Source of the DNA: Minisyncoccia bacterium
GTDB lineage: Bacteria > Patescibacteriota > Minisyncoccia > Phycocordibacterales > UBA9973
NCBI GenBank assembly: GCA_038249055.1
Contig: JBBRWS010000002.1
Span: forward strand, 14,118-78,117
Direction of reading: 5' to 3'
Length of the DNA stretch: 64,000 nucleotides
This document shows positions 8,916-54,446 of this stretch, in pieces; within the stretch, counting starts at the first letter, position 1, and the number at the start of each line of letters is the position of its first letter. Made by a program: the position numbers and the translations under genes. The notes below the pieces were generated by a model. That model was given only the letters and a program-made list of their open reading frames with translations, made no database searches and had not been told where the DNA came from.

Positions 8916-9012
8916 TTGTAGAGGTTGTACCTCTCAATCAGTAGATTGACCTACTCGGTACGGGAGCCCAGTAGGTGATTGTACTCAATCAAGGTCCAAC
9001 CTCTACAATTTT
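8916..9012. repeat. composite palindromic repeat element (TTGTAGAGGTTGTACCTCTCAATCAGTAGATTGACC...GGTCCAACCTCTACAA)
   Basis: Member of a family seen at 12819, 16700, 20611, 27270, 31826, 36202 and 41616. Confidence 0.7.
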
Positions 9013-12818: not shown

Positions 12819-12912
12819 TTAGAGGTCCAACCTTGATTGAGTACAATCACCTCACGGGTCGGGGCCAGATTTGCCCGTGAGGTCAATCTGCTGATTGAAG
12901 GTTGGACTCTAA
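12819..12912. repeat. composite palindromic repeat (TAGAGGTCCAACC...CAATCTGCTGATTGAAGGTTGGACTCTA), inverse orientation of the 8916 copy
   Basis: Lies in a 590-bp intergenic region. Preceded by a small hairpin CTTCC-GAGA-GGAAG + T-run at 12793-12816. Confidence 0.7.
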
Positions 12913-16177: not shown

Positions 16178-16399
16178 TATGTATGAGAATACTCATCCAT
16201 ATGCTCCTCGCTTGTCGTGAAAAATAGATTACCTACCTAAGGCGAATATTATCATATTTATGTTAATATGGCAATACTTGTCCCGTTAGAAGCCGTGGTC
16301 ATAGTTTGTAATGGGAAATTGATATATTATTGTTAATTATTAACTAAAAATCCGCAAATTGGTATTTATTAATTATGAACACGATTTGCTTTTAATGGG

Positions 16400-17434
16400 A
16401 TGCAAGAGAAGATAAAGATAGTTTATAAAAAGAGTGGACAAACACCCCTAGATTGTATAAATGAAGCCAAAAAAGCAAATTCAGATTTACTTCGTTTACC
16501 TTTAACTTATGCTGGCCGTTTAGACCCTCTAGCAGAGGGTGTTCTTGTTCTTTTAATTGGAGATGAATGTCTAAAAAAGGATGAATATTTAAAACTACCA
16601 AAAGAATATGAGGTTACTATTTTATTTGGTTTTTCTACTGATACATATGATTTAATGGGGAAGGTTATAGATATTAGCACTACGTCGGAATTGTTATTTA
16701 AAAGGTCCTCGGACGAGGGGGTAGAGGTCCAACCTTCAATCAGCAGATTGACCTCACGGGCAAATGTGACCCCAGAGGTTGTACCTCTACTAAGAAAAAA
16801 CGATGAAGCTTTAAATAATCATATTAATTTTGTTGCATCAAGTAAACAAGTGGAATCAAAAGATTCATTTAAAATGGTCTGGCCGAGCCTTAGAGGTACA
16901 ACATCCGAAGTCAGCTTGATGTTGGACCTCTTGGCGAGGAAATCCGAGGACCTTTTAAATGAATCTTTTGATGGAACGACTAAACAAATTAATAAATTTC
17001 TTCCACAATTTACAGGACGTATAACACAATCATATCCACCGTATTCTTCTCGTACGGTAAATGGTAAACCTCTTTATAAATGGGCAAGGGAAGGAAAGTT
17101 AAATGAAATTATAATTCCTTCTCATGATGTATTTGTTGAAAGTATTGAAATAATTAATGAAGGTCTTATTTCTGGAGAAGAATTTTTAAATAAAATAAAA
17201 AAAGATATAGCTCTTGTTTCTGGAGATTTTCGTCAAGAAGAAATTATTAATTTATGGAAAGAAACATTAAAAGACAAAAAAGAAGAACAATATAAAACTA
17301 TAACTTTAAAAATATCTTGTGGTAGTGGAGTGTATGTAAGGGGTATAGCTCACGAACTAGGCATAGCTTTAGGTGTTCCAGCTCTTGCTCTACATATAAA
17401 AAGAACAAAAGTAGGAGAATATAAAAATCAATAA
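16400..17434 (+). CDS. truB: tRNA pseudouridine(55) synthase TruB-like, carrying a ~85-aa in-frame insertion encoded by palindromic repeat elements
   Basis: The TruB motif AGRLDPLAEGVLVLLIG and ILFGFSTDTYD come before the insertion. QSYPPYSSRTVNGKPLYKWAREG comes after it. Confidence 0.75.
   Translation: MQEKIKIVYKKSGQTPLDCINEAKKANSDLLRLPLTYAGRLDPLAEGVLVLLIGDECLKKDEYLKLPKEYEVTILFGFSTDTYDLMGKVIDISTTSELLFKRSSDEGVEVQPSISRLTSRANVTPEVVPLLRKNDEALNNHINFVASSKQVESKDSFKMVWPSLRGTTSEVSLMLDLLARKSEDLLNESFDGTTKQINKFLPQFTGRITQSYPPYSSRTVNGKPLYKWAREGKLNEIIIPSHDVFVESIEIINEGLISGEEFLNKIKKDIALVSGDFRQEEIINLWKETLKDKKEEQYKTITLKISCGSGVYVRGIAHELGIALGVPALALHIKRTKVGEYKNQ
16700..16956. mobile_element. composite palindromic repeat element inserted in frame within truB (13-bp perfect terminal inverted repeat AAAAGGTCCTCGG)
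   Basis: AAAAGGTCCTCGGACGAGGGGG...TAGAGGTCCAACC...CAATCAGCAGATTGACCTCACGGG...TTAGAGGTACAAC..GTTGGACCTCT...CCGAGGACCTTTT. Confidence 0.7.
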
Positions 17435-17461
17435 AATAATCTTTGAAAAAATAGATAAGTA

Positions 17462-17580
17462 AAAAGTGGAATCAAAATAAGTATTTAAAATGGTCTGGCA
17501 TTGGTTCCCGTTCCCCTCGTCCGAGGACCTTTTAAATACTTATTTTGATGGAACGATTGATTAACTTATTAATTTCTTAG
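17462..17580. repeat. degenerate duplicate of truB-internal sequence (16848-17005) carrying a short copy of the AAAATGGTCTGG...CCGAGGACCTTTT element
   Basis: GTGGAATCAAAA..ATTTAAAATGGTCTGGC and TTTTGATGGAACGA occur both inside truB and downstream of its stop. Confidence 0.6.
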
Positions 17581-19009
17581 TTTCTTCAAAAAGTTCATCT
17601 ATTCTTTCTTTTGTTTTTGCTTCGCCTATTAGTCTTATAATGGGCTCAGTATTTGATGGACGTAAATGAATCCATGAACTATCAGAAAAATCTAAACGAA
17701 GTCCATCCAGTTCATTTATTTTTATTTCTTTAAAATGATTTTTTAATTTCTCATATATATCTTCAAGTTTTCCTCGTAGCTCGAGTTTATCTTTTCTAAC
17801 TTCATATTTAGGTAAAGAATTTACACATTCACTTATTGTTTGATTCCTTTCCGCTAATAATTCTAATATTAAAGACAAGCTCACAAAACTATCGCGTGCC
17901 ATATTAATAGTAGGGTATATAATTCCACCTCCACCTTCGCCTCCTATAATTGCATTATTTTCTATCATTCCAGCAACAACATTTGCTTCTCCAACTTTTG
18001 TTCTCACACACTCACTTTCATGTTTTGTTGCAATATCTTTGTTCATTTGAGATGTAGACATATTTATTACAACTTTATTTTTGGGATTTTTTGATAATAT
18101 TGCTTCTACTCCTAAAGCAACTGTATATTCTTCAGATATTACTTCACCATTCTCGTTTATTACCACTAGTCTGTCAGCATCAGGGTCATGAGCAAATCCA
18201 ATATCACATTTTTTTTCTTTTACTAGATTTGCGATATCTTGTAAATTTTCTTTAACGGGTTCTGGTTTATGAGCAAATTTACCATTTGGAATATTATTGA
18301 GTGGAATAAGTTCCACTCCTAGGTGTTCAAATAAATACGGGTCTAAAACACAAGCTGAAGCATTTATCATATCAACAGCAACTTTGAATTTGCGAAGACC
18401 AATAGCCTCTATATTTATATTTTGAAGAATTTGGTCCGCGTGTTCTTTTGGGAGATTAGAAATATTTCTTTTGAAGAGATAAGGTAAAATATCTCTTATC
18501 GAGGTCCTGCGCATGCTATTTAGTCGAGACGCAAAAATTTTTGCTAAAAAATAATTTGGTCCTAAATTAGAATTATACTTTTCAAGTTTTTGTTCATTAA
18601 TTTTTTTATAATTCTCTTTAATTATTTCAACTTCAGCCTCGCTCGTAAAAAGTGCTTTGTTAGTTACGAATTTTAACCCATTATATTCTCTAGGATTATG
18701 ACTTGCAGTTATTATTATTGCACTATCATATTTGTGTTTATGAACAGCAAAAAGAACTGTAGGGGTAGGTAATATATCTCCATCAATAAAATCTATACCC
18801 AGATCAACAAGTGTTTTTATTATATTTTTTTTTATTTCTGGCCCACTTTCTCGTCCATCACGACCAATAAGAATGGTTGGATTTTCATTTATATTTTCCT
18901 TAACAAATATTATAAAAGCTTTTGTATAATTTTTAACAATTTCGTGATTTAAACTTTCCCCCCATATACCTCTATATCCTGAAACTGTAAGTTTTGGTTC
19001 ATTTTGCAT
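17561..19009 (-). CDS. phosphohexomutase (phosphoglucomutase/phosphomannomutase/GlmM family)
   Basis: Active-site TASHNPREYNG and the metal-binding DPDADR motif. Confidence 0.8.
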   Translation of the reverse strand: MQNEPKLTVSGYRGIWGESLNHEIVKNYTKAFIIFVKENINENPTILIGRDGRESGPEIKKNIIKTLVDLGIDFIDGDILPTPTVLFAVHKHKYDSAIIITASHNPREYNGLKFVTNKALFTSEAEVEIIKENYKKINEQKLEKYNSNLGPNYFLAKIFASRLNSMRRTSIRDILPYLFKRNISNLPKEHADQILQNINIEAIGLRKFKVAVDMINASACVLDPYLFEHLGVELIPLNNIPNGKFAHKPEPVKENLQDIANLVKEKKCDIGFAHDPDADRLVVINENGEVISEEYTVALGVEAILSKNPKNKVVINMSTSQMNKDIATKHESECVRTKVGEANVVAGMIENNAIIGGEGGGGIIYPTINMARDSFVSLSLILELLAERNQTISECVNSLPKYEVRKDKLELRGKLEDIYEKLKNHFKEIKINELDGLRLDFSDSSWIHLRPSNTEPIIRLIGEAKTKERIDELFEETKKLIS

Positions 19010-20610: not shown

Positions 20611-20668
20611 AAAAAAAATAGTAGAGGTTGGACGTCTTCCGTAGATGTACAACCTCTACTATTTTTTT
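20611..20668. terminator. repeat-family hairpin acting as a bidirectional terminator (A-run, TAGAGGTTGGACGTC..GTACAACCTCTA, T-run)
   Basis: Lies between convergent genes. Confidence 0.65.
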
Positions 20669-21566: not shown

Positions 21567-21602
21567 ATGAAGAAGTGCTCTAAATCAATAAAATCTATTA
21601 AG

Positions 21603-22121
21603 ATGAAAAAAGGTAATGCATTGCAGTTCTCTGCAGATGGAACTGAGTTTGTTTTTTTGTTTTCAAGTGGCATCGAGAGTGCTGCTTTCACATCAAAAAA
21701 AACGGGATTCGCTGCTGTAACGGATTTAGCCCAAAAAGGCAAAATCAGTGTTGAAGAATTTTCTAAATTCAGAGACGAAATTCTGGATGCAGAAAATTTG
21801 GTTTGGGAAGATTCTGAGCCAGAAAGAATTAGTTTTCTCGGTCTTCTCATTGGGATGGCGATGTCTTCCTCGGGCTCTTCCATTTTGGATCAAATGCACG
21901 CACCAGAAGAACCTGTAACGATTGCATATTTAAAGATGTGTGATTGTGGTGGTTCTCACGGGAGAATTTATTGCAAGACGGCGTATACCGGCCGACTTGA
22001 TTCAAAAGGAGAGGCCTCTGTCTATCTTAATGAATTGAAAAAAAAAGGGCTTGTTGATGACGTTGAATTCGAAAAAGTAAAATCCGAAATTGAAAATTCC
22101 GGATTGGACTTGGATGAATAA
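21603..22121 (+). CDS. hypothetical protein (start moved to second ATG downstream of the promoter)
   Basis: ORF 21567..22121 in the track. The first ATG overlaps the -10 box. Confidence 0.4.
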   Translation: MKKGNALQFSADGTEFVFLFSSGIESAAFTSKKTGFAAVTDLAQKGKISVEEFSKFRDEILDAENLVWEDSEPERISFLGLLIGMAMSSSGSSILDQMHAPEEPVTIAYLKMCDCGGSHGRIYCKTAYTGRLDSKGEASVYLNELKKKGLVDDVEFEKVKSEIENSGLDLDE

Positions 22122-22260
22122 TCTAATTTACGAAATCCCTTTCTAACTAAAATGAGCAGCTCCATAATTTGGGGCTGCTTTTTTTATGCGGGGAGACAAA
22201 ATAAAATCCACAATCTCTTTCGAAATTATGGATTCTAGTTATAACGCCCTATTAATTAAT

Positions 22261-22647
22261 TTAAGCGTGTTTAGGGTTTTTGTAGATAAGTATGTTCATT
22301 CCCTGTACATATATTGGAATTACTAAAGCAAATAAAATATAACTGTTAGCTCCGAATATATTGAAGCACATGTTTACTTTATCAGGATTAAATAATTCAT
22401 CAATTCCGTAAATTCTTGCCCATACTAATTCAGTGATAGGGGTAAGAAATGCGAGGAATGACAATGGATAGCTCAAGTTGAACTTATCTTTGTCTTTTAG
22501 GACAATTAATACTCCACTAAATAGTGGTAAAAGGTACATGAACCAACCAAAATGGTAGTCCAAATAGGGGAATATTAAAGCTAGTGAAATCCACACAGCT
22601 ATAATTGTTAAGTAATACCCCTTAAAGGCTAATAATTTTTTCGTCAT
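22261..22647 (-). CDS. hypothetical membrane protein
   Basis: 128 aa, multi-TM. Confidence 0.4.
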   Translation of the reverse strand: MTKKLLAFKGYYLTIIAVWISLALIFPYLDYHFGWFMYLLPLFSGVLIVLKDKDKFNLSYPLSFLAFLTPITELVWARIYGIDELFNPDKVNMCFNIFGANSYILFALVIPIYVQGMNILIYKNPKHA

Positions 22648-22859
22648 CTATTAATGATTTATCCCGAATAGGCGGGGACCTGTTTTTAGAAACTTTAAAT
22701 TAAATTGATAAATAAGTCAATATCATTTTTAATATATGAAAATTTATATTTAACTCAACAAAAAAGTTCCCGTCAAAATTTTGACGGGAACCTCTGCAAT
22801 AATTTAATTTGCTATTTTTTACTGGTAGTACAAGAGGTTTTTTAAATTTAAGACGAAAA

Positions 22860-23126
22860 TTATTTTAAAACAATTGAGGTTAAAAAATAAAAAATCGAAT
22901 ATACTACAAGCATTGAAATCATAACACTCAGTTTTTGAATAAAGTTTAAAAATTTTACTTTATCCGAAAAAAGGATGATCATGACTCCAAAGCAAAATGC
23001 TGTGAAATCAAAAAATGAAAACAATGAGCCGTTGGCTCCTATTATTTCTGGTGAATGTTTCAAAAATGAAAGAATACCAGAAATTGAAATAAGCAGAAAA
23101 CCAAAATAGAAATAAAAATTTTTCAT
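22860..23126 (-). CDS. hypothetical membrane protein
   Basis: 88 aa with two or three TM segments. A minus-strand terminator GTTCCCGTCAAAATTTTGACGGGAAC + T-run lies at 22765-22795. Confidence 0.35.
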   Translation of the reverse strand: MKNFYFYFGFLLISISGILSFLKHSPEIIGANGSLFSFFDFTAFCFGVMIILFSDKVKFLNFIQKLSVMISMLVVYSIFYFLTSIVLK

Positions 23127-23158
23127 ATCAGAAAATTTAATAAATGTTTAAAAAAATT

Positions 23159-23761
23159 TTACTTTTTACTTTTTACATTAGCTTCAAGTTCATCAAGAAT
23201 TTTCTTTTTAGCAAGCACTTCTCCTTTAGCTTTAATAAGAGTTTCTTCAATTTCTAAAACTCTTTTAATACCTTGTAAAAAAAAGGGATCAAATATCAAG
23301 ACTACTGAAACAGAATCTATGCAATACTTACCTAATGCGAATTCTTTTCTTTCATAAAATGTTTTTTCCAAATCATATTTTATATACCCCTCTAGAGATT
23401 CCTCTAATGATTTTGATCTTTTGTAAACATCGAAAGAATTTAATTCAATGAGCGTCATTGAAGGGGGAAGTAAAGATCGACTTAAAATAATTCGTTTTAC
23501 TTTTTCACTTTCAGGTAAATAGTATAATCCAAGCCAAAATTTTTCAGGTGGATTAATTCCAAAAAATTCATCAACAGAGATTCCTTTTTTTGAGTAGAAT
23601 ACATTTATTGATGCCGTAATTATATGGGCATCATTTGTTTTATAGCAATCCATCCTTCCAATCTCTTGTGTTCTGCCTAAATATTTTACTCTAATTACAA
23701 TCAGAGTAATAATTGAAATTGCTAAAACAATCAATAAAAAGTAACTGATAATTTTTTTCAT
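23159..23761 (-). CDS. hypothetical protein with N-terminal TM anchor
   Basis: 200 aa. I see no motif. Confidence 0.4.
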   Translation of the reverse strand: MKKIISYFLLIVLAISIITLIVIRVKYLGRTQEIGRMDCYKTNDAHIITASINVFYSKKGISVDEFFGINPPEKFWLGLYYLPESEKVKRIILSRSLLPPSMTLIELNSFDVYKRSKSLEESLEGYIKYDLEKTFYERKEFALGKYCIDSVSVVLIFDPFFLQGIKRVLEIEETLIKAKGEVLAKKKILDELEANVKSKK

Positions 23762-23993
23762 AATGATTTTGTTTTTAAGTGTATATAAGATTTTCTAAAC
23801 ATCCATTTTAATAGAGGCTTAGAAAATCTTATATATTTAAATTCAAAATTCTGTATTTCAAAGAACTATCTTTATATTATAGCATATTATAGTTAAAAGT
23901 CAATGAATCTAAATTAGATAAAAGATTTTAAAAATAACAAAACCCATCTTTTTCAAGACAGGTTTTATTTTATTAGTGCGTATATTGTTTATC

Positions 23994-25406
23994 CTAGAAT
24001 TTATATTCCGGAATATCTTTTAGTTCCCCACGCAAAAAGGGAAATAAGAGACCATTGTCGTATGCCAACAAGAGTTTGTCGGCAAATTTTTCTAAGCCAT
24101 TGTTTCCTTCATTACTGGAAAGCATTGTGTTGCTATTTTTTCCTTTATACCAATAGGTATTATAGGAAAAATTTTTCAACAAGTGCTTATTGAGTTTCAG
24201 GTGATTGGCTGTATCGGCGATACAGTCCAATAACATAGGGAATACCCCAGTTCCAGACCACCTGCCGAGCACAAACATATGGGGCAGTCCTTTCAAGAAT
24301 CCGACCATAATTGGGTCGATGTTACGGAGCCAATTTTGGTCGCTCCATTCCTTTGAAGCTGCGTCATGATATGGGGTCATAATGACCACATAATCAAACA
24401 GCTCTTTTGCCTGTCTCATTATCCTCACCAAGTTGGGAGGCATAATGTCCTTACCACGAAACTGTGATAAAGGTCGGGTTCTCCTGTTGTATGTCTGGTA
24501 AAACCAGGCGTACTCAGTTGATCCGATAGAATCAGCAAAAAAATTCACTGCACTGTCCGGGGAAGGATCCTCGGCTCTGGTATTGTCCGCTATTTCTTCT
24601 TTGGCACTTACGTACCAAACTGGAAAAGCAAAACTCAACTCAGGTAAATGCCTGATGTCAATCACTGAACTGTGATTAAGCAGACCATTTTTGTGCATTA
24701 AGGTAAAAGCTTCTCTTACGCTTAAGAACTGCGAGTATTCCTTTTTCAATGAATCGCTCTGGCCAGAAAGGCCATTTTCATTGTACAAAGCAATTGTCTC
24801 ATCAATCATAGCCTGTTCTGCAACCTTATCAACATCGTCCATAATGGAGCATTTAACTCCTAACGGGCTTAACATTGAGAACGTTTTCTCCACGAAAGTT
24901 TCAGCCATCCGGTTTATATCTTCCGGATTGTAGCCACCACCCTGACTCAATACCCAACCAATCTGCTGAATAAATTCAGCAAGGGGTTTGTTTTCGAGAG
25001 CTTTAGAGATATCACCTTCAGCGATAATCTTTTTCAACTGGTGGTAAGGGCTAATTGCCCTGGAGAGTCCAGCTATTGCTGTGGTACGCCCTTCTGGTGT
25101 ATTCACATCAAGACCGGTTTCAATCATTACAATTTTTTCTGTTCTGAACTTCCCAACTCTCTGAGGGTCGTGGTTTAATTCTGAAAATTGGACCAACTGT
25201 CCAACTTTGAATTCGGAACTTTCGGAAACTGGGCAAAAAATGTCCCCATTGGTTCCGATGCTTTCATAAGCACGTTTAACCATTCCGATAAATACATATC
25301 CAGTATGTACTGAGACAATCTCACCAGTGTACACGGTTCCAACTATTACTTCTGGATTTTCAATAACTAGAATTTCTTCTTGGTCATTCTTTAAATCATT
25401 TGTCAT
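23994..25406 (-). CDS. hypothetical 470-aa protein, GC content visibly higher than neighbours
   Basis: Long ORF with distinct composition. No recognisable catalytic motif. Confidence 0.5.
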   Translation of the reverse strand: MTNDLKNDQEEILVIENPEVIVGTVYTGEIVSVHTGYVFIGMVKRAYESIGTNGDIFCPVSESSEFKVGQLVQFSELNHDPQRVGKFRTEKIVMIETGLDVNTPEGRTTAIAGLSRAISPYHQLKKIIAEGDISKALENKPLAEFIQQIGWVLSQGGGYNPEDINRMAETFVEKTFSMLSPLGVKCSIMDDVDKVAEQAMIDETIALYNENGLSGQSDSLKKEYSQFLSVREAFTLMHKNGLLNHSSVIDIRHLPELSFAFPVWYVSAKEEIADNTRAEDPSPDSAVNFFADSIGSTEYAWFYQTYNRRTRPLSQFRGKDIMPPNLVRIMRQAKELFDYVVIMTPYHDAASKEWSDQNWLRNIDPIMVGFLKGLPHMFVLGRWSGTGVFPMLLDCIADTANHLKLNKHLLKNFSYNTYWYKGKNSNTMLSSNEGNNGLEKFADKLLLAYDNGLLFPFLRGELKDIPEYKF

Positions 25407-25674
25407 TTTCAGCAGTTTTAAATTTTTACAGTTAATTAAAATACAGTTTATTTATGAATCGGTTTTTACTAGGGGAATAACAGCAACTCTTTTAGAAGTT
25501 ATTCTTTTACCTTGTAATTTGTCAAACAACGATTTCATGTATATTATACATCATTAATATAATAAAGTCAATAGTCTATATTAAAATTTAATTTAACATA
25601 GTAAAAAATATTTAAGCTTATAATTTAAAAGACTGAATAATGATTGTCATTATTCAGTCTTTTTTGCTTATTTT

Positions 25675-26064
25675 TTAGCCTCTATCTTTTTCTTCTGCCA
25701 TTTTTTCAAGTTTAACTTGAAAGCTACTTTTTTTAACGTCCTCTTTTTTAGCTGAATTTTCTTCTGCCATTTTTTGTAATCTGGATTGAAAATTACTTTG
25801 CGTTTTATCTATATCTAGTTCGTTTCTCTCTTTGAGTTGTTTTGGAAGATTAACACAAACAAAATATAGAATATAAGGCCAGAGGAAGAAAAATAAATAT
25901 CTCAAATTTGCTGGGACTCCAGCAGGAAAATTGGCATTCACTTTGTCTCTAGTGATGTAGTTCCTTTTCAATATTGATATTACAAGTTCGAATATCAAAA
26001 GAAGAAAAAAACCAATTACCATATACCAACCGATACAGGATAATACAATTTTGATTGTTTCCAT
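25675..26064 (-). CDS. hypothetical membrane protein with C-terminal tandem repeat (FQSRLQKMAEEN / FQVKLEKMAEEK)
   Basis: 129 aa. Confidence 0.4.
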   Translation of the reverse strand: METIKIVLSCIGWYMVIGFFLLLIFELVISILKRNYITRDKVNANFPAGVPANLRYLFFFLWPYILYFVCVNLPKQLKERNELDIDKTQSNFQSRLQKMAEENSAKKEDVKKSSFQVKLEKMAEEKDRG

Positions 26065-26213
26065 TATTGTGATATTAACCCTGAAAGGCGGGTCACCTAT
26101 GTTTAATTTAAGGTTACCATGAACGGGGAGGAAGTCAATGAGAGATATTTATCGATAAACATAAAGAGGGGTCTTTGATATAAAGACCCCTCTTTTACAA
26201 ATTTGGAAAATTT

Positions 26214-26681
26214 TTAATTAAGACCAGACAATGTCTCGCCAGGGATAAAAGTGTCTTCTGAATTTTGCAACGCAATTATTTTGAATAGAGGGCGAATTGC
26301 CAAGACTGACCTTTGTTGAGGGAAACGTAGATGTATTAAAATCCACATTAATTCTTTGCATGCGTCGGCTTCTTTTTCAAGACGATTGAATTTTTCAAAA
26401 TAATGAAAGTTTTGTTCAGTTGAAATAATTTTAGATAGTGGTTTAATCCAATCCACATTATGTTCATCTTCAAGATTTTTTCCAATGATATTTTCAAACA
26501 TCATTCTTATTTCTTGGTTTTTTAGGATAGATAAAGTATGCAGTCTTTTTTCAAGCTCTGACATTTCACCTATTTCTATTCCGGATAGAATTTCATCTGT
26601 GTCTGGTACAACCTCAAGTTCATCACAGTAAGCCAAGGCTTCCTCAATGATTGTTCCGCTTATTAATTCAATATTTTCCAT
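26214..26681 (-). CDS. hypothetical protein
   Basis: 155 aa. A terminator hairpin AAAGAGGGGTCTTTGATATAAAGACCCCTCTTTT lies at 26162-26196. Confidence 0.4.
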   Translation of the reverse strand: MENIELISGTIIEEALAYCDELEVVPDTDEILSGIEIGEMSELEKRLHTLSILKNQEIRMMFENIIGKNLEDEHNVDWIKPLSKIISTEQNFHYFEKFNRLEKEADACKELMWILIHLRFPQQRSVLAIRPLFKIIALQNSEDTFIPGETLSGLN

Positions 26682-27062: not shown

Positions 27063-27504
27063 GATCTAATTTTAGTTTATTGAATTTTCTTTACCACTCT
27101 AAATAGGGGAACAAAGAAAATTCAATAAATTAAATTTAACCAAAATTTTAAAGAGCGCACTCCTTATATGATAGCATGTTTTGTGGTAAAAGTCAAGGGA
27201 GAGGTGGCGGGATATCTTCCTCTACGAATGCGGGAACCACGAGTACGTGTTCGGTCACTCATAATTTTCTGGTGAAAATTTGTGCGACCCTCAATCAGTA
27301 GATTGACCTCACGGGCGACTCGCACCGTCTTTCGATTCCCGCGGGACCGCGAGTACGCTTATCGAACACTACGTTTTCAGGTACTTTTCGATTTGGTTAA
27401 CACCAAATAGCGAAAAGTCTTTCGATTTCCGCACTCGAGCAAAGCAGTTTGCTCGCTCATCTCCACATATGAAAAAACATCCTGTAAAGGATGTTTTTTC
27501 ATAT

Positions 27505-31464: not shown

Positions 31465-31538
31465 CCGCCCTTAGCTCAGTTGGTTAGAGCACAGAGCTTA
31501 TACCTCTGGGGTCCTAGGTTCGAATCCTAGAGGGCGGA
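31465..31538 (+). tRNA. tRNA-Ile (anticodon UAU)
   Basis: Folded manually. Acceptor CCGCCCU/AGGGCGG, D-arm GCUC..GAGC, anticodon stem CAGAG/CUCUG with loop CUUAUAC, T-arm CUAGG-UUCGAAU-CCUAG, discriminator A. Terminator CAGGGGTTACCCTG + T7 at 31544-31572. Confidence 0.8.
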
Positions 31539-31574
31539 CAATTAAAAAAATCAGGGGTTACCCTGGTTTTTTTA

Positions 31575-32000
31575 ATTGTCCGCCCTAGCAAGCAAACTAC
31601 TTTGCTTGCGTCTAGGATTCGAAGACCTTGAGCATGTATCATGAAATTTTAATTTCAGGATACGCGAAAGGTGTACAGAATCTGTAAGATTCGAAAAGCG
31701 TAATCGCGGTCCTAGAGGGCCAGAGCGTCTAGGATTCGAAAGACTTTTCATTATCAGCTTTGCTGATTGAAAAGTACCTGGCTACGTGGTAGCCGAAAAA
31801 TGTACTCATGGTCCTAGAGTATTATAAAAATAGAGGTTGGACGTCTCCCGTAGACGTACAACCTCTATTTTTATATGGTCCGCCCTAGCAAGCAAACTAC
31901 TTTGCTTGCGTCTAGGATTCGAAAACCTTTTCCTTGTGAGTGTACTCGCGAACGGAAAAGGTGTACTGGTCCAGTAAGGACCGAAAAGTGTACTCACGGT
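31575..32000. repeat. tRNA-Ile-adjacent repeat array: two copies of GTCCGCCCTAGCAAGCAAACTACTTTGCTTGCGTCTAGGATTCGAA plus GATTCGAAAGACTTTTC..GAAAAGT(G)TACTCAYGGTCCTAG modules
   Basis: Copies at 31575-31625 and 31868-31925. GGTCCTAGAG and GTCCGCCCT are inverted or partial copies of the tRNA 3' end (TCCTAGAGGGCGGAC). Confidence 0.7.
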
Positions 32001-32501: not shown

Positions 32502-35500
32502 ATGGATAATCCTCCTAAAAAAACTATAGATAACGAAAAGGACGAAAAGACCGATATGGTTGATACTGCTGATAAAACCGAGACATCAGTTAATACTGAA
32601 AAGACTGAAGACCAAATAAGAGAAGATATAAAAAAGAGTGCTTTAGAAAAAGCAAAAAAAACAGTTACAGTTGTAAATGTTGAAGAATTAGCCGAAAATG
32701 AAGCTCGTAAGGCTGCAGATGCAAACATGGCCGAGTCACATGGAAGCAAAAAAATTGGTTTTTTTAAAAAAATGTGGAAGCATACATTTTTTGATGAATA
32801 TTACAGACAAAAAGAAGTAAATAAAGTTCGTGAGGATATAAAAAATACAGGTAACATTTATACAGGAAGATTAGAAAATAAAGATAAAGTAGCTCACGAG
32901 ACTACAATGAAGGCGATTTCTGATCGCTTTACTTCCGAATATGAAGGGACACTTGCTGACGGAGAAGCTAAAAAAATGCTAGATGAAAAGGACCCAGAGA
33001 CTATACAAGCAAAAACTGACATAAAAAATTTACTTGATAGCTATGCTATGGGTAAAATAGATGATGAAGCTTTTAATACTGAAAAAAATAAAATTATAGG
33101 AGGTTTAAAGAAAGAAGATTTACTAGAAGGAGCAAATAATTATGCAGACAATCTTTTTGAGATTGCTCAAAATGCACGTCTAGCGGTAGAACACGGAGCA
33201 AAGATTGAAGAGTTAGAATACGACTTAGCGATTGTTGTAGGTAAAGCAAAAAGCAGTCTAAAAACAGAGGCTCATTTCAACTGGGTAGATCAAGGTATTG
33301 ATAAAATGAAAAAATCATACGTTGGTAGATTTATAAGCCCAGCCGTTCTATCTCTTGGTGTTGGTCTTGCTTATTCTATATCAGTTGGAGCAAGTAAAAA
33401 ATTAATGGCAAGTAAAGCAGCTGCATGGATATCACTAGGAGGTTCAGTTGCGATTTCTGCAGCATTTGCTGGAATGAACGAGAGTCAGCGTGTTGCACTT
33501 GAGAGAAAACAACATGGTATTGAAATGGCTGAAGGAGGTATTATTGAAGAAGGAGATAAACGTAGAGAGCAATTGGAAAAATATCAATATACAATGGAAA
33601 GTTCAAATGTTCTTGCTCAAAATTTGCGTGATTTAATGTTTGAAAAAGATAAAGATGGTAATGAAATAGTTAAAGATATTAAACCAGAAGATTTACAGAA
33701 AATCATGGCAAGTCTAAGTGAAATAGATGCACGTAAATCTCTTAACACAAGAAAGAAGATAGATCTTATTTCATATACAAATATTAGTAGTGTAGAAAAA
33801 GAAAGTACAGATCTTACTATTTTGACAGCCAGAGCTAAAGTGGAATTAAAGAAAAGACTTGATGGTGGTCTAAAAAGTGGATTACCAGAGGGTAAAGATT
33901 TTGATTCTTATTTGAAAGAACAAACTCAAACCATAGAAGATACTCTTCTTGGTGGTGAAAAAGGAATAAATTCTCATGATAAAGCTTTCAGAAGATACAA
34001 GGCAGGTCGTATTGCTAAAAAAATGGCACAAACTGCAGTCGCAGGTTTGATCATTGGAGGAACGATTCAAGAAGTATTTGCTTTCTTTAAAGATGATGTA
34101 CAGGGTCTTGCAGAAAGTATGTTCCATCAAGATGCTCATGCAACTATGCAGACACCCTTTGAAAGTATTAGAGGTTGGATTTTAGGCAATCCTTCTCATA
34201 TGGAAATGGGGAATGCGGTCCACGCTGTTTTCAATGGACATGATATAAATATTCCAGAAGGTACAAGTCTGGTTAATAATGCTGACGGAACTTTTGATTT
34301 ATTAAGAGGTGGTCATGTTGTAACAAGTCATTTTCTTCCAACATTTAATGCTGATGGTGGCTTAGATGCGGCTTCTGTTGCAAAATTAGGGCAAGATGGA
34401 ATTATTGCAACGGCTACTCATCAAATAATTGATTCTACAAAAGAAGTAACTGGTAATTCTCAAGAATGGTTATTGAATCATCCAGGAGAAACTATTAAAG
34501 TTGATCACAATGCATTTATGGATCAAAATACATCTATGACTCCCGACCAATTTCATCCTGGTCATTTAGTAGGAGCTGATGGTAATGAACCTCTTACTCA
34601 GTGGGGAGGTATAAATGGAACAGGTGTAAATGAAAATGGAGACACTGTAATGAATATTTCTCAAATGATAAAAGAGGGTTCATATCACGGAAATATTTCC
34701 GTGGATGTTCCAAAAGAATTAAATGATGGTAATTTGATGGCATTAATATTTCTTAATTCCACTCATGGTGCTGGTATACCAGTACCAATAGATGCAAGTG
34801 GAAATATTATTTTTGATCATAACAATCCGATAATGCAGCAAATATTTAGTCCTGGTCCTGATGGCCATATGGTGTCACATGCTAGAGTTATTGAAATTGT
34901 TCAAAAAATGGGGACAGATGCAAATGGAGTTGAGCATGTCCGTGCTCTTAGTGCTGTGGTTGGTGAAGGTCTAGATAAAATAAAAGATATTGTCCCTTCG
35001 CATCTTGATATTGCAATAAATAATTTAACTCCAACTCGAGGTACAGAAATGCCATTATTTGTCCCATTGGTTGCTCGCAGACCACTTGGAAAAATAATTT
35101 ATGGTCCAGATGGTAAACCAATTAAGCCAAGTCCTGAAGGTGACAAAGAGAAAAAATCTACTATTCAAACTGAAGGAGATAAAGATTTAAATACAATTCC
35201 AGGAGCTCCGATTGGAGGTGAAGAAAATAAAGATTTAAATACTGTAGCGGCTATTCCAGTAGGAGTAGGAGAGACAATTGAAAAACAAAAAACAATGAAT
35301 GAAATGAGCAAGGAGGAATACGACGCAATGTATGATGATTTAAAGATGATTAATTTGAGAATTCAATCAGCACAAGGAATTATTACCTTAGAAGAATCAG
35401 ATTTAAAATCCGCATACGGTAAAAAGAGATATATGGATTTAAAATCTATTGCTCCGGGTGTTCCTGTTCGTTTCAATAAAGATGAGCTAGAAATTATGGG

Positions 35501-36182
35501 TAAAGAAATTGAAGGTCTTTTAAGTAGTGCAAAAATAGTTGAAAAAGAAAAAGAGCTGACCGTAGAAGAAAAAGGAGGTATTAAATCAGACATAGAAATG
35601 TTAAATAAAGCGATTCAAAATTCACAAGGAATTATTGCTTTAAATGAGTCTTCATTTCAATCTGAATATGGAAAGAAAAGATATAGAGAACTTAAATCTA
35701 TTGCAGAAGGTAAGGGTATAACATTTAATAAAAATGAATTACCCCAAATAGCTACTGAAATGGAAGCCGTACTTCGAGGTCCCAGAAAAATAGAACAAAC
35801 AGAAGTTGTAAAAGCTCCAGAAGAAACTATTGTTGAAAAAGTAGTAGAACAAGCACCTTCAGAAAAAGTTGAAGAAAAAGTAGTAGAACAAACCGAAGTT
35901 AAAAAAGCTCCAGAGCAAGCACCTGCAGAAGAAGTTGCAAAAAATCTAGAAACAGAAAAATTATATAAGATTGAAGATTTATCAAAAATAGGAACAGTTT
36001 TTGAAGATAAAAACAATAGTTTTAAAGTTCTAGGGGTTACTAGTTTTTTAGGGATGAATAAAAAAATAAAAATTGAATACACTAATAAAATAACAGGAGA
36101 AAAGAAAACAGACTTCTATCCTAAGAAAGATTTAATAAAAGACTTTAATAATGGAGTTGTTAAGATAAAATCAGTAGAATAA
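32502..36182 (+). CDS. giant (1226 aa) hypothetical protein with central transmembrane segments, Glu/Lys-rich N-terminus, C-terminal ~60-aa tandem repeats and an EKVVEQ low-complexity tract
   Basis: Hydrophobic stretches (ISPAVLSLGVGLAYSISVGA, AAWISLGGSVAISAAFAG, AVAGLIIGGTIQEVFAFF). Repeats MINLRIQSAQGIITLEESDLKSAYGKKRYMDLKSIA / MLNKAIQNSQGIIALNESSFQSEYGKKRYRELKSIA. Confidence 0.6.
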   Translation: MDNPPKKTIDNEKDEKTDMVDTADKTETSVNTEKTEDQIREDIKKSALEKAKKTVTVVNVEELAENEARKAADANMAESHGSKKIGFFKKMWKHTFFDEYYRQKEVNKVREDIKNTGNIYTGRLENKDKVAHETTMKAISDRFTSEYEGTLADGEAKKMLDEKDPETIQAKTDIKNLLDSYAMGKIDDEAFNTEKNKIIGGLKKEDLLEGANNYADNLFEIAQNARLAVEHGAKIEELEYDLAIVVGKAKSSLKTEAHFNWVDQGIDKMKKSYVGRFISPAVLSLGVGLAYSISVGASKKLMASKAAAWISLGGSVAISAAFAGMNESQRVALERKQHGIEMAEGGIIEEGDKRREQLEKYQYTMESSNVLAQNLRDLMFEKDKDGNEIVKDIKPEDLQKIMASLSEIDARKSLNTRKKIDLISYTNISSVEKESTDLTILTARAKVELKKRLDGGLKSGLPEGKDFDSYLKEQTQTIEDTLLGGEKGINSHDKAFRRYKAGRIAKKMAQTAVAGLIIGGTIQEVFAFFKDDVQGLAESMFHQDAHATMQTPFESIRGWILGNPSHMEMGNAVHAVFNGHDINIPEGTSLVNNADGTFDLLRGGHVVTSHFLPTFNADGGLDAASVAKLGQDGIIATATHQIIDSTKEVTGNSQEWLLNHPGETIKVDHNAFMDQNTSMTPDQFHPGHLVGADGNEPLTQWGGINGTGVNENGDTVMNISQMIKEGSYHGNISVDVPKELNDGNLMALIFLNSTHGAGIPVPIDASGNIIFDHNNPIMQQIFSPGPDGHMVSHARVIEIVQKMGTDANGVEHVRALSAVVGEGLDKIKDIVPSHLDIAINNLTPTRGTEMPLFVPLVARRPLGKIIYGPDGKPIKPSPEGDKEKKSTIQTEGDKDLNTIPGAPIGGEENKDLNTVAAIPVGVGETIEKQKTMNEMSKEEYDAMYDDLKMINLRIQSAQGIITLEESDLKSAYGKKRYMDLKSIAPGVPVRFNKDELEIMGKEIEGLLSSAKIVEKEKELTVEEKGGIKSDIEMLNKAIQNSQGIIALNESSFQSEYGKKRYRELKSIAEGKGITFNKNELPQIATEMEAVLRGPRKIEQTEVVKAPEETIVEKVVEQAPSEKVEEKVVEQTEVKKAPEQAPAEEVAKNLETEKLYKIEDLSKIGTVFEDKNNSFKVLGVTSFLGMNKKIKIEYTNKITGEKKTDFYPKKDLIKDFNNGVVKIKSVE

Positions 36183-36201: not shown

Positions 36202-36274
36202 AAAAATAGAGGTTGGACGTCTCAATCAGTAAGTTGACTTACTGGGTAAGGGGGACGTACAACCTCTATTTTTG
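36202..36274. terminator. repeat-family hairpin/terminator (TAGAGGTTGGACGTC-TCAATCAGTAAGTTGACTTACTGGG-..GACGTACAACCTCTA) with flanking A/T runs
   Basis: Directly after the stop of the 1226-aa gene. Confidence 0.65.
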
Positions 36275-36512: not shown

Positions 36513-38045
36513 ATGAAGGAACAGTTCAACGAAAAAGATTCTCTGCAAAAAGATATAGAAAGTCAGACAACAGCAGAAGGTATAAAAAGTTTTATAGATG
36601 ATACCGAGGCATGGGGTGGTCATGAAGATATAGTTCTGTTTGCTAAAAAAAAGCTCGAAGATATTTCATTGAAGGCTAATGCAGCAGAACAAACAAGTGA
36701 ATCTCATATTGTTCAAATAAATGAGATGGAGGGAAGTGTGGTAGCAGTAGCAGAAAGAACAAAAAATATTGATAAACAAATAGAAGAGGTTAAAGCAAAT
36801 GCAGCAGCAGAAATTGGAAAAGTTGAGGCTATTGGAGCTGAGATAGGAGAGAAAAGCCCAGAAATAATAATAGATAAAAGATTACAAGAATATACCGAAG
36901 GTAATATTATAAAATTTGCAGAAGAAGGAAGACCTTACAAAGTAACAAAAACAGCAGAAGATAAAGGTTCTTATTATTTAGCGGAAATAGAAGCTATTTT
37001 AGAACCAGGAGAAGATTCTAAACACAAAGATCATAATTTTGTTGAATTAGAGAAAACAGAAAATGGATCAATTGGGAAAATACTTGCAAGACCTGATTAC
37101 TTATATAAACCTAGAGAAACACAAAAAGTAGAAGGAGAAAAAAATGCAGGAGAAGTAATAGAAAATAATATAAATAATAATGTTGCAGAACCAGAGAAGG
37201 TAGCAGAAGTTCAAAATGAAACAACTGCTGAGTCTGTTGTAGCTCCAGAGACTAAAGTTGAAAGCCCTGTTGTTTCAAAACCAGAAGCTGGACCAGAAAA
37301 AGTAATTAGTAAAGGGGAAGAAAGGTATAATAAAATTTCAGATACAATAACTACTCAAAAGAATAAATTTACAGGTTGGATAAGTAGAGGAACTGAAGGT
37401 CTTGGAAAATTTATTAAAAAGGGATTAATAGGAGCTTTGGAAGCACCAGAAGATATAACTCATGGTGTAAAAGTTGTTGGAAATAAAATAGTAGAAGAAT
37501 CAGGCTATATAAAAGATAGCATTGTAGCAGGAGCTACCATTGTTGGTAAAACAACAGTTGAAGGATTTAAATCTATGGGAAATGATTATAATAAATTTGA
37601 TAAATATAGAGGTGAAAAAGTTGAACAAATAGGAGAATGGGTAGGATTCAGTGCAGCTCAGGCTTATGAGTCAAGTTCAAATTGGATAAAAGAAAAGAAA
37701 ACAAAAACAGAAAATATTATTAATGGAGTTTCTCTTGCTACAGAAACAGTTTATGAATTAGCAAAAGATAAATCGATTGAAAAATTGGAGAATACAAGAG
37801 ATAGCATTAAAAAATCTTTAAAAGAACTTAAAAAACATGGTGAAAGCGCATTGGATACAGCTCGATTATGGGCTTGGTATAAAAAAGATGACTACAATAA
37901 AAAGAAGAATGCTATAAAAGAAGCATATCTTAAAAAGAAAGGAGAAATAGAATATAGTAAAATGCAGAAAATATTAGAAAAAAATGCTCAATTAAATCAA
38001 ATTGGGAAGAAAGGAGAAAAACTAGAATATAAAATAGCCGCATAA
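36513..38045 (+). CDS. hypothetical 510-aa Lys/Glu-rich, predicted coiled-coil protein
   Basis: Long ORF, no motif. Confidence 0.5.
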   Translation: MKEQFNEKDSLQKDIESQTTAEGIKSFIDDTEAWGGHEDIVLFAKKKLEDISLKANAAEQTSESHIVQINEMEGSVVAVAERTKNIDKQIEEVKANAAAEIGKVEAIGAEIGEKSPEIIIDKRLQEYTEGNIIKFAEEGRPYKVTKTAEDKGSYYLAEIEAILEPGEDSKHKDHNFVELEKTENGSIGKILARPDYLYKPRETQKVEGEKNAGEVIENNINNNVAEPEKVAEVQNETTAESVVAPETKVESPVVSKPEAGPEKVISKGEERYNKISDTITTQKNKFTGWISRGTEGLGKFIKKGLIGALEAPEDITHGVKVVGNKIVEESGYIKDSIVAGATIVGKTTVEGFKSMGNDYNKFDKYRGEKVEQIGEWVGFSAAQAYESSSNWIKEKKTKTENIINGVSLATETVYELAKDKSIEKLENTRDSIKKSLKELKKHGESALDTARLWAWYKKDDYNKKKNAIKEAYLKKKGEIEYSKMQKILEKNAQLNQIGKKGEKLEYKIAA

Positions 38046-41110: not shown

Positions 41111-41196
41111 GGAGGCGTGGATGAGTGGCTTAAATCAACGGTTTACTAAACCGTCGTCCCCTTAAAGGACCGTGAGTTCGAATCTCACCGCCTCCG
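41111..41196 (+). tRNA. type-II tRNA, Ser-like (G73, long variable arm) with atypical anticodon loop UUACUAA (formal anticodon ACU)
   Basis: Acceptor GGAGGCG/CGCCUCC, 3-bp D-stem, anticodon stem ACGGU/ACCGU, variable hairpin GUCC-CCUUAAA-GGAC, T-arm GUGAG-UUCGAAU-CUCAC. Confidence 0.65.
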
Positions 41197-41229
41197 CATG
41201 TTGAAAAAATTGCCCTTTTATGGGGCATT

Positions 41230-41612
41230 TTTTCTTATGCGGAGGTGAACAAATGAACTGCTTCATTTGTGTGTGAGATTCGAAAGACTTTTCCTTGTTG
41301 TAGACGGAAAAGTACCCGCCGCAGTATCGGCGAATCTCACCGCCTCCGCAAAAAACAGAAAACCCGAAAGGGTTTTTCTTTTTGCGGGCGAAAGAGCAAA
41401 CTGCTTTGCTCTTGTGTGAGATTCGAAAGACTTTTCGTTCTCTGGTGTTAACCAGAGCGAAAAGTACCTGGCTATGTAGTAGCCGAAAAATGTACTCATG
41501 GTCTCACTGCTACATTCGAAAGACTTTTTTTTATTGAAGATAGAAATACCTCAATTAACAAATTGACCTACTGGGCGCCGCAGTATCGGCGAATCTCACC
41601 GCCTCCGCAAAT
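41230..41612. repeat. tRNA-adjacent repeat array: TGTGTGAGATTCGAAAGACTTTTC..GAAAAGTACC modules plus two direct copies of the tRNA 3' end (CGCAGTATCGGCGAATCTCACCGCCTCCGCA)
   Basis: The tRNA 3' end GAATCTCACCGCCTCCGCA recurs at 41335-41358 and 41590-41612. GTGAGATTCGAA is the inverted T-arm. Confidence 0.7.
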
Positions 41613-41615
41613 AAT

Positions 41616-41664
41616 AAAAATAGAGGTTGTACGTCTACGGGAGACGTCCAACCTCTATTTTTAT
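41616..41664. terminator. repeat-family hairpin/terminator, inverse orientation (TAGAGGTTGTACGTC..GACGTCCAACCTCTA)
   Basis: Downstream of the minus-strand gene 41673..42179. Its orientation is flipped relative to the copies after plus-strand genes. Confidence 0.65.
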
Positions 41665-43054: not shown

Positions 43055-45410
<2,356 letters not shown>

Positions 45411-46891: not shown

Positions 46892-48088
46892 CTATTCACT
46901 AATTTTCGTCTCCGGATAAACTATATCCCATAAAGCACTCGCTACATTATGTGGTTTACCTACGAGGGGGAAGTGATGAAGATCTATAAATGGAGCACTG
47001 TTACATTCGATAACCCCACATCTTGGTTGGTCCTTCCATGAAATAGATACATCATCCATTATAAAATCTACTCCTATAAGAGGGTCATCAAGTACTTCTG
47101 CTACTTTTTCAAGCATTTCTTTATTGTCAGGATGTACAATATCAGTCATATCAGTAATTCCACCTCCTACAGCTCTACTTGTTTTTTGTCCGAGAGTTAT
47201 TAGCTCATCTTTTTTTGGAATGGTATTTTCATTATGATTCCAGTTTTTTAATTCTTTTATTGCTTCATCATCTAGTTTTAGTTGGTGAAATATTGGTCCT
47301 TGTCTGAGAGGATTTTTATTTTCAATTTCTATGAGTTCTTTTATGTTATGAATTCCATCTCCTATTACATATGCTGGTTCACGGCGAAGGCAAGCGATAA
47401 GTTTTCCTCCAATTAGAGTTCCTCTAAAAACGTAACCAGAAAGTTCTTCTTCTATCATTACCCAAGGGGAAAGTTGACGAGCTATTTTAAAGGCAGTTAA
47501 AAATTCATCCGCACTATTTAAATGAGTTCTAGTATGGCGACTTCGTGAACCAAGATTTGGTTTTGTAATTACAGGTTTATCTAAAGAATTAAAAATCTTT
47601 AAAGCGTTCTTTGTAGAATGAGTCACTCCACCACGCGCTACTTTTATTCCAGCTTTTTCAAAGTGTTTTTTCATCTCACCTTTATTATCCATCCATTCCA
47701 ATCCTTTTGGATTATATATTTTTGGACGAGGTAAAACATCAAAAAATCTTTTATCTTTATTAAATTCTGATACGAAAATATCATGACCAATATTAAAAAG
47801 TCTAAATTCGTACATATTTATTCCTCTTTTTATAGCTTCTTCCCAAAGGACCTGTGCTCTACCACTATCATCTTTTTGAGGTTCGTATGTTATTTTGCCG
47901 AGTTTTAAAAAAGTTAAAGTTTTTGTTAATCCAGTACCCATCCAATCAAATGATGATTCGGGAATTAATTTACCCATCCAATTTGTCCAAGGTTCAATCA
48001 AAACACCCATTAAAATTGAGGTATAAACAATACCATGATTTACCTGACTCCCTCCACAATCAACACAATATTTTTTTGTTTTTTTCAT
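46892..48088 (-). CDS. ATP-grasp domain protein (RimK/cyanophycin-synthetase-like ligase) with N-terminal Cys cluster
   Basis: ATP-grasp pattern (KPNLGSRSRH...MIEEELSGYVFRGTLIGGKLIA...GVDFIMD) and an N-terminal YCVDCGGS. Confidence 0.55.
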   Translation of the reverse strand: MKKTKKYCVDCGGSQVNHGIVYTSILMGVLIEPWTNWMGKLIPESSFDWMGTGLTKTLTFLKLGKITYEPQKDDSGRAQVLWEEAIKRGINMYEFRLFNIGHDIFVSEFNKDKRFFDVLPRPKIYNPKGLEWMDNKGEMKKHFEKAGIKVARGGVTHSTKNALKIFNSLDKPVITKPNLGSRSRHTRTHLNSADEFLTAFKIARQLSPWVMIEEELSGYVFRGTLIGGKLIACLRREPAYVIGDGIHNIKELIEIENKNPLRQGPIFHQLKLDDEAIKELKNWNHNENTIPKKDELITLGQKTSRAVGGGITDMTDIVHPDNKEMLEKVAEVLDDPLIGVDFIMDDVSISWKDQPRCGVIECNSAPFIDLHHFPLVGKPHNVASALWDIVYPETKISE

Positions 48089-50072: not shown

Positions 50073-50082
50073 ATATATAATT

Positions 50083-50739: not shown

Positions 50740-50742
50740 TTT

Positions 50743-51339: not shown

Positions 51340-51340
51340 T

Positions 51341-52006: not shown

Positions 52007-52010
52007 ACCT

Positions 52011-53750: not shown

Positions 53751-53800
53751 TTATAAATTAGCTGTAGTAAAACATTTACAATTGTATTATATCGATTACG

Positions 53801-53960: not shown

Positions 53961-53966
53961 AAAGAT

Positions 53967-54362: not shown

Positions 54363-54446
54363 TACCTGTCCCGTTAGAAGCCGCGATTGTAATTTATATA
54401 ATAAAAATAACATGAAATCAAACATTGAAAATATTAACAGTTTAAC

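Follow-up and report, generated by a model that had tools for sequence, protein, structure and literature searches.

The truB gene of a Minisyncoccia bacterium, on contig JBBRWS010000002.1, carries a long in-frame insert, and we analysed this gene within a 64-kb window (the whole 64,000-nucleotide stretch of DNA, whose coordinates are used throughout). The labels carried by the best relatives, Candidatus Nomurabacteria or Paceibacterota, make the host a member of the candidate phyla radiation (CPR). The gene order rplT–rpmI–infC / truB / phosphoglucomutase is kept among orthologous loci. The encoded tRNA pseudouridine synthase matches the Pfam family TruB_N (PF01509; E = 1.5e-25) as a domain split in two stretches, and the GRLDP aspartate motif of this domain is invariant in 120 TruB orthologs. 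An AlphaFold2 model based on these 120 orthologs has a mean pLDDT (predicted local distance difference test) of 81.5, with values above 90 nearly everywhere outside the insert, and its best structural matches in Foldseek (2ab4, 1r3e and 1k8w; probability 1.00) are all TruB. The original prediction, made from the letters alone, had placed intact TruB motifs on either side of an added segment, and this holds: the open reading frame (ORF) is open throughout and the motifs flank the segment. Neither a frameshift nor a pseudogene, which would have told against that prediction, was found, all conserved motifs being present, and truB looks functional. The C-terminal PUA domain of the E. coli and T. 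maritima enzymes was found neither in the window TruB nor clade-wide; the window protein ends at T. maritima TruB residue ~200 of 309, and the model holds no extra domain. Separately, TruB has a second, clade-specific insertion, at residues ~241–298, that is well folded and bears an invariant GDFRQ motif.

A phmmer comparison against the Protein Data Bank places the insert precisely. Query residues 3–91 correspond to T. maritima TruB residues 3–88 and query residues 193–240 to 95–140, so that 101 residues (303 nt) stand for a 6-residue turn of the solved TruB. The gain is ~95 aa rather than the ~85 first estimated, and the boundaries initially given, 16700–16956, enclose 257 nt, which is no multiple of three. 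The claim that the insert is in frame in a conserved enzyme proved correct. The truB frame contains no stops across the insert, whereas the five other frames hold 7, 10, 10, 1 and 8, and only 162 of 200,000 shuffles of the insert (0.08%) were stop-free. The whole region also folds as RNA more stably than shuffles (z = −5.9). In the model, pLDDT falls below 50 at residues 94–163, amid a core above 90, and residues 168–187 form a helix of moderate confidence. The segment thus maps to a predicted surface loop, as anticipated. The preserved frame suggests that the insert is translated, as a disordered excursion from the confident TruB fold.

The insert is built of four nested hairpin modules, which belong to two dispersed families (Table 1). 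Members of the first, the core hairpins, are 75–120 nt long, with an imperfect GC core (GGTCCTCGG ... GCCAGACC-A) that contains two bulged C and one bulged A, a loop of 15–30 nt, and AT-rich arms of ~20 bp that vary by locus yet remain complementary. The second family is named here after its TAGAGG motif.

Table 1. Coordinates of truB, its insert and the hairpin elements of the window (a point marks features given no strand)
Feature	Position	Strand	Basis or detail
truB ORF, 344 aa, intact, open	16400–17434	+	ORF list, Pfam, AlphaFold2, Foldseek
Extra segment, 101 codons (residues 92–192)	16673–16975	+	phmmer vs T. maritima TruB, pLDDT, stop count
Element 1, core-hairpin family, orientation A, left half only	16685–16721	+	comparison with L099, L100, L084
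TAGAGG-type hairpin 1	16722–16789	+	contains CAATCAGCAGATTGACCTCACGGG at 16737–16760; read as VEVQPS..PEVVPL
AT-rich spacer (..NDEALNNHINFVASSKQ..)	16790–16850	+	aligns with spacer of L099 ortholog
Element 2, complete core hairpin, orientation B relative to truB	16851–16976	-	palindrome, fold, orthologs
TAGAGG-type hairpin 2, inside Element 2 loop	16891–16931	+	net +30 nt vs L099
Core hairpin past truB stop, complete	17467–17553	-	palindrome 17472–17548, TGGAA-flanked, fold z = −4.6
Core hairpin in frame in ligA, zinc-finger loop; 27-residue peptide	63393–63472	+	host ligA 62115–64000
TAGAGG-family element, intergenic	8921–9003	.	repeat comparison
TAGAGG-family element, intergenic, multi-branched hairpin	12820–12912	.	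fold z = −8.7
TAGAGG hairpin, intergenic, between convergent genes	20624–20656	.	A and T runs on flanks
TAGAGG hairpin, intergenic, 3' of tRNA-Ile	31833–31865	.	fold z = −11.8
TAGAGG hairpin, intergenic, 3' of 1226-aa ORF	36209–36266	.	repeat comparison
TAGAGG hairpin, intergenic	41623–41655	.	repeat comparison

Element 1 consists of an arm (TCGGAATTGTTATTTAAAA), the core GGTCCTCGG at 16704–16712 and a loop start (ACGAGGGGG), and it encodes the peptide SELLFKRSSDEG. Three related loci (related loci are designated L and a number), L099, L100 and L084, carry a complete Element 1 at the same truB position. Alignment with L099 shows that the right half has been replaced in the window by TAGAGG-type hairpin 1, with a net change of +33 nt. 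The Element 1 core is the sole unpaired one among 30 exact cores in 1.08 Mb of AT-rich loci. Hairpin 1 is not present in the truB of L099 or L100; it is 96% complementary to window positions 12861–12907 and folds at z = −3.3 as DNA. Element 2 is a palindrome (16856–16971) with perfect 20-bp arms, cores at 16876–16883 and 16944–16952, and flanking TGGAA direct repeats at 16851–16855 and 16972–16976. Its DNA fold reaches −36.5 kcal/mol (z = −9.4), its peptide is SKDSFKMVWPS..ARKSEDLLNESFD, and orthologous copies are found in L099, L102 and L085. The L099 ortholog, whose TruB is 70% identical, contains two complete, oppositely oriented elements split by the same spacer.

The sequences that make up the nest recur in the window, as originally noted. 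Copies of the 13-mer AAAAGGTCCTCGG lie at 16700(+), 16944(−) and 17521(−), three in 64 kb versus 0.03 expected. Arms of the TAGAGGTCCAAC type lie at 16722, 16778(−), 16891 and 16921(−), and elsewhere in the window at 12820 and 48169; the 24-mer module CAATCAGCAGATTGACCTCACGGG is found at 16737, 12874(−) and 27292. A degenerate copy of flanking truB sequence plus a short element had been noted just past the truB stop, at 17462–17580. The copy is real, and it is a complete element with Element-2-type arms, which sits between the convergent truB and phosphoglucomutase genes.

Outside the truB nest, the TAGAGG hairpins of the window are located at gene 3' ends; relatives have such hairpins too, in the truB loop and the truB-downstream spacer. 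Core hairpins have a density of ~1 per 16 kb in the window. In ~1.5 Mb of related loci the core was found in truB loops, in spacers at gene 3' ends, upstream of rplT, and in frame in ligA and pheT. DNA folds were more stable than shuffles in five of six copies (z −3.3 to −11.8), the ligA copy being weaker (z = −2.2). Six-frame translations of the elements, compared with a set of 5.8 billion proteins, gave one match, a UvrC from another metagenome, in a search where short matches cannot reach E ≤ 10; two core-hairpin copies in this uvrC were confirmed at the DNA level. A core-pattern scan of viral contigs gave chance matches only, none with complementary arms. Rfam returned no gathering-score match in the window and nothing relevant at E ≤ 5 in 16600–17650.

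Where the core is read as protein, the same DNA serves several frames. One orientation yields KRSSDEG, LGPRMRED or KVLGRG in different proteins, and the opposite orientation reads MVWPS..SEDL. Core and loop are stop-free in all six frames; stops are confined to the AT-rich arms. Most copies are flanked by 5-nt direct repeats (YTYCR, e.g. TTCCA..TTCCA) that resemble target-site duplications. These repeats may just as well be a 3-nt mismatch inside a longer palindrome, the core hairpins pairing over 19–20 bp, then leaving three positions unpaired, then forming two further pairs.

We surveyed the 120 nearest cluster representatives each of TruB and LigA, with loop counts made on 113 TruB and 108 LigA. 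The stretch between TDTYD and QxYPPYS in TruB spans 30–125 aa (median 53), and that of the window is the longest. This loop is expanded in 83 of the 113 clusters; in 55 the left and the right core signature occur as a pair, with 39 clusters showing one orientation, 15 the opposite one and one both. The insert is therefore not peculiar to this genome, since at least 55 of the 113 nearest TruB clusters hold the core family in the same loop. Related truB sites lacking the element were also found: none of the 21 baseline TruB loops bears a core signature. LigA gives a similar picture. The inter-cysteine stretch of its zinc finger ranges from 23 to 87 aa versus 27–33 at baseline, the loop is expanded in 83 of 108 (~77%), and core signatures occur in 52, in several frames and both orientations. 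Outside the zinc-finger loop, 69,081 LigA residues contained no core signature. Minimal, element-free loops were present in 21–25 cluster representatives per gene. In pheT, a core hairpin lies at one site in two genomes, and other hairpin families were found at the same ligA loop, at a second ligA site, at the same pheT site and in the truB loop. Recurrence at the same loops implies repeated insertion there, or repeated rewriting of an occupied site.

Several perfect palindromes unrelated to the core family also lie in frame in conserved Paceibacteria genes. One SAKGGSASGG-coding palindrome appears in two different proteins of L050 (11907–11940 and 16595–16636), a primase-like ORF of L020 has two GC hairpins (2227–2269 and 2376–2427), one hairpin peptide is common to a PheT (L068, 6182–6264) and a TruB (P0106), and a perfect 23-bp palindrome occupies a second ligA site in L054 (7135–7182). 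Two further genes are candidates by length. The phosphoglucomutase-family gene beside truB in L099 (1247–2914) encodes 555 aa versus 473–482 in relatives and may hold an in-frame insertion, and the adenylate kinase of L102 (5813–6892) has 359 aa versus 202 aa in its relative L101. The N-terminal extension of translation initiation factor IF3 (200 vs 165 aa) was considered as a further insert and set aside, an artefact of start-codon choice in the ORF list being more probable.

Comparison of close relatives indicates that elements come, go and exchange parts. The closest genome (L100/L101 and L225, from one sample) has a LigA 85% identical to that of the window; its truB (L100/L225) has a complete Element 1 and is missing Element 2 and both TAGAGG hairpins. 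The truB of L102 has the second element only. Large loop deletions set L081 apart from L086 (TruB ~82% identical to that of the window), and half-element footprints are common. Arms and loops are also freely mixed among loci. Between the window and L100, the truB-downstream copies have near-identical arms and cores around unrelated loops (21 vs 17 nt). The arms termed c-type enclose loop type ii in L004 and a type iii-like loop in L002, and those termed a-type enclose either loop type i or type iii. In L004 and L078, two copies per genome share near-identical core and loop and have unrelated arms. There are hints that arms may be copied from flanking host sequence, in ligA of L078 and of the window and as TCGGAA/TCAAAAG in element-free truB orthologs. 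These hints are also explicable as deletion footprints, for example in P0030 via GAAG direct repeats.

The pairing of the hairpins is conserved beyond expectation. We aligned 24 copies in register, some of them orthologous and hence not independent, and compared arm covariation with 500 shuffles. Arm and core cells were paired in 86% of cases versus 59% in shuffles, and 185 cells had changed on both sides versus 49.6 expected; none of the 500 shuffles matched the observed pairing or covariation. G.T pairs made up only 5 of 49 non-Watson–Crick arm cells. Wobble is thus not enriched, which fits palindromy held at the DNA level and not in one RNA strand alone.

Retained copies are also unusually similar between lineages. 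The orthologous ligA element of the window, L225, L226 and L227 is 91–96% identical in all six pairs, versus 72–80% for the rest of ligA and 50–58% at its third codon positions. Against the third-position rate, binomial P for the element is 1e-12 to 1e-18, and against the overall rate it is 2e-7 to 3e-4; one change in an arm has been compensated. Coding DNA adjoining the element has an ordinary identity of ~83%, and a recombination tract is thus not the cause. At the truB locus, elements are identical at 96 of 103 positions versus 69% at third positions, and the imperfect core with its fixed bulges is kept across genomes whose TruB are only ~40–45% identical. Such identity of retained copies is not expected if selfish DNA decays neutrally. 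Nor is self-correction of one arm by the other sufficient, because pairing would be kept in that way and between-lineage identity would not. We conclude that selection acts at the nucleotide level, and these comparisons suggest that hairpin integrity may be selected at the DNA level, or at the DNA and RNA levels, in a REP-like role (REP, repetitive extragenic palindromic).

We consider it likely that small, non-coding hairpin repeats, similar to REPs or to Rickettsia palindromic elements (RPEs), have accumulated as a nest in a permissive TruB loop and are translated there as a disordered excursion. Elements 1 and 2 would have been present already in the ancestor of the window's truB. A TAGAGG hairpin would later have taken over the right half of Element 1, and another would have entered the loop of Element 2, both changes being net multiples of three. 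An existing hairpin may serve as a landing pad where more hairpins insert or loops are exchanged, with the core anchoring re-insertion or gene conversion, and such behaviour would account for the hot spots and the nesting. Survivors would be limited to in-frame, stop-free outcomes in tolerant loops.

Several observations sit uneasily with this explanation. The very high conservation of retained copies misfits passive selfish DNA, and translation of the insert is a prediction from its preserved frame. The differences between the window and L099 are replacements rather than clean insertions. If the 5-nt repeats are taken at face value, they imply units of 76, 82, 91 and 121 nt, all 1 mod 3, a poor fit to simple insertion into an open frame. 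No transposase and no REP-associated tyrosine transposase (RAYT) was found among the 20 window ORFs in a Pfam scan. A simple terminator consensus scan called none of the hairpins, except for a fragment with five pairs (36250–36267) of the 36209–36266 element. In position and in A/T-run flanks, five hairpins are terminator-like (17467–17553, 20624, 31833, 36209 and 41623); stem mismatches or long loops probably hid them from the scan.

Phenomena of this kind are already known. RPEs are established in-frame palindromic repeats of Rickettsia genes that also occur between genes (PMC10969869), and RPE-1 lies inside truB of R. conorii (PMC3733652). The likeness to RPE behaviour proposed at the outset is borne out: small palindromes occur here both between genes and in frame in conserved housekeeping genes, truB is a host in both cases, and, just as RPE hosts are thought to remain functional because the insert lies at the surface, the insert here falls in a predicted disordered, fold-compatible surface loop. 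The likeness meant here is one of behaviour, and the phylum differs, the present elements belonging to CPR/Paceibacteria. They also differ from RPEs in their build, with a short imperfect core that is conserved, arms that covary and are specific to the locus, and loops that can be swapped; in filling the same loop in about half of related genomes with multiple frames, orientations and families; and in the slower evolution of retained copies relative to the host gene. Literature searches found no report of in-frame palindromic elements in CPR/Patescibacteria, in line with the original prediction.

Intragenic REPs (Di Nocera et al. 2013) are close in their hosts. They are short stem-loops found mostly 3' of genes and sometimes in frame, and GTAG/CGTC REPs lie in frame in uvr genes, DNA ligase, tRNA synthetases and tRNA pseudouridine synthase B (PMC3733652), a list that closely matches truB, ligA, uvrC and pheT here. 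Different REPs at about one site in recB of two Xanthomonas species (PMC3733652) are a precedent for site recurrence. The truB REP of S. maltophilia, however, is at residues 10–16, outside the loop used here. A REP is defined by a GTAG or CGTC tetranucleotide at one end of a 20–40 bp imperfect palindrome (PMC3733652). The core family lacks such a one-sided tag, whereas TAGAGG hairpins have GTAG..CTAC at both ends at 16721–16790, 8921 and 20624, and ATAG or TTAG elsewhere. The elements described here are also longer, at 75–120 nt with composite stems of ~30 bp, and no RAYT (HUH tyrosine transposase), the enzyme that goes with REPs, was found among the 20 window ORFs scanned.

Two other systems share part of the pattern. 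Pneumococcal BOX, RUP and SPRITE repeats cluster and nest, and SPRITE resembles a rho-independent terminator (PMC10969869). The present hairpins likewise nest in one another and have intergenic copies at gene 3' ends, where their terminator action is putative and was not called by the simple scan; the pneumococcal clusters are intergenic (PMC10969869), in contrast to the in-frame nests inside essential genes here. [quoted passage not shown] MITE termini are conserved, however, whereas here the ends vary and it is the internal core that is conserved. No parent insertion sequence was found in the 64-kb window or in 20-kb neighbourhoods of relatives, and the implied insertion lengths misfit the reading frame. 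What is new is the lineage, the architecture of core, arms and loop, the extreme recurrence at the same loops, and the evidence that retained copies are more conserved than their hosts.

The strongest alternative is that the hairpins are host-functional cis elements (REP-like protein sites, mRNA stabilisers or terminators) which selection keeps in tolerant loops, intergenic space being scarce. CPR genomes are tiny and tightly packed, and are usually called streamlined. Such a function is favoured by the retained copies, whose nucleotides are conserved more than any others in ligA and at the truB locus, and also by compensated arm changes, a fixed-bulge core that outlasts TruB divergence to ~40–45% identity, and intergenic copies at gene 3' ends. 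The occurrence of several frames and both orientations at one site is harder to reconcile with it, and so are the loss of individual copies from close relatives and the 21–25 cluster representatives per gene with element-free, minimal loops. Any such function is putative, with no Rfam match. We regard this alternative as an appreciable possibility, short of probable. More tentatively, the in-frame hairpins of truB, ligA, pheT and uvrC would be no passive selfish relics. They would be selectively maintained nucleic-acid elements in dedicated landing-pad loops, with an imperfect fixed-bulge core, arms held together by compensatory change and loops passed between copies, recognised by a trans-acting factor, as a REP-like system housed in essential proteins for want of intergenic space. 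This version we think rather unlikely.

The original prediction had seen the segment at 16700–16956 as one element with 13-bp terminal inverted repeats flanked by TTTAAA, which would make it a composite miniature transposon inserted whole. The 13-mers are indeed exact inverted copies, and they pair in the minimum-free-energy RNA fold of the whole region. One of them is, however, Element 1's left arm and the other Element 2's right arm; L099 carries both elements as complete units, each with its own 20-bp arm pair and with the same spacer between them. The first element occurs by itself in L100 and the second in L102, the segment is 2 mod 3 in length, and the window holds no further copy of the composite. 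Insertion as a single transposon is very improbable.

Equally poor are the prospects of the core as a motif like a DNA uptake signal, maintained through biased uptake and recombination, which would be expected as inverted pairs in terminators and enriched in genes of genome maintenance. Uptake sequences are enriched in genome-maintenance genes of Neisseria and Haemophilus, ligA and uvrC are among the hosts here, the window encodes a type IV pilus system, and the core is identical across genomes. Yet 29 of the 30 exact cores are paired, the lone unpaired one belonging to a truncated element; the window has only ~1 core per 16 kb; and conservation spans the locus-specific 20-bp arms and the loop, beyond a short motif.

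A lineage-specific protein domain selected for the action of its peptide is less credible still. The frame is preserved, peptide modules recur in orthologs and residues 168–187 are modelled as a helix; against this, the same DNA is used in three frames, in both orientations and also between genes, residues 94–163 have pLDDT below 50, loop length ranges from 30 to 125 aa among close relatives, and conservation extends to third codon positions. Artefact or decay (a pseudogene, a repeat mis-assembly or intron-like removal of the insert) is just as hard to sustain: the source is presumably metagenome-assembled, as its nearest relatives are, and repeats can confuse assembly, but assemblies made independently from different samples agree on the architecture, the ORF is undamaged and keeps every conserved motif, the insert differs from L099 by net +30 and +33 nt, no match to an intron or ribozyme family was found, and excised sequence would have no need to be stop-free.

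Across about half of a large clade, small hairpin repeats are widespread in the same surface loops of essential enzymes. Annotation is affected, in that the zinc-finger domain of the ligase is missed in many ligase clusters with expanded loops, and so are protein length comparison and structure prediction for CPR proteins. The clade provides a natural, highly replicated series of examples for the origin of new protein loop sequence. The slower evolution of retained copies makes it testable whether REP/RPE-type repeats are merely selfish or serve the host, and peptides such as SSDEGVEVQPSISR, if detected, would prove that the elements are translated.

The window has other features of note. The pilus genes form a cluster at 48936–59426, with PilM, a PilB/T-like ATPase, PilC, a prepilin peptidase and three tandem pilin-like genes (56863–58080). 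An 83-nt repeat occurs three times, as two tandem copies at 53787–53952 and a third at 58518–58600. ARAGORN identified a tRNA-Ile with anticodon TAT (31465–31539) and a tRNA-Ser with anticodon ACT (41111–41197), both unusual in bacteria. Arrays of GC-rich modules lie directly 3' of the tmRNA, tRNA-Ile and tRNA-Ser genes (27190–27480, 31568–32000 and 41217–41620), and a tRNA 3' end is present in them as two partial copies (41317–41361 and 41576–41620); the arrays may be integration remnants or a further repeat family. ORFs of up to 1226 aa that have no Pfam match are found at 21567–26678, 32502–36179, 36513–38042, 43055–44020 and 46892–48085, and a 469-aa ORF (23994–25403) contains GC-rich islands. 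Finally, the motif AATAC(C/T)TGTCCCGTTAGAAGCCG occurs shortly upstream of gene starts at 16273–16310, 54361–54398, 60136–60173 and 60779–60816, one copy being in the divergent infC–truB spacer, and may be a promoter or leader element.

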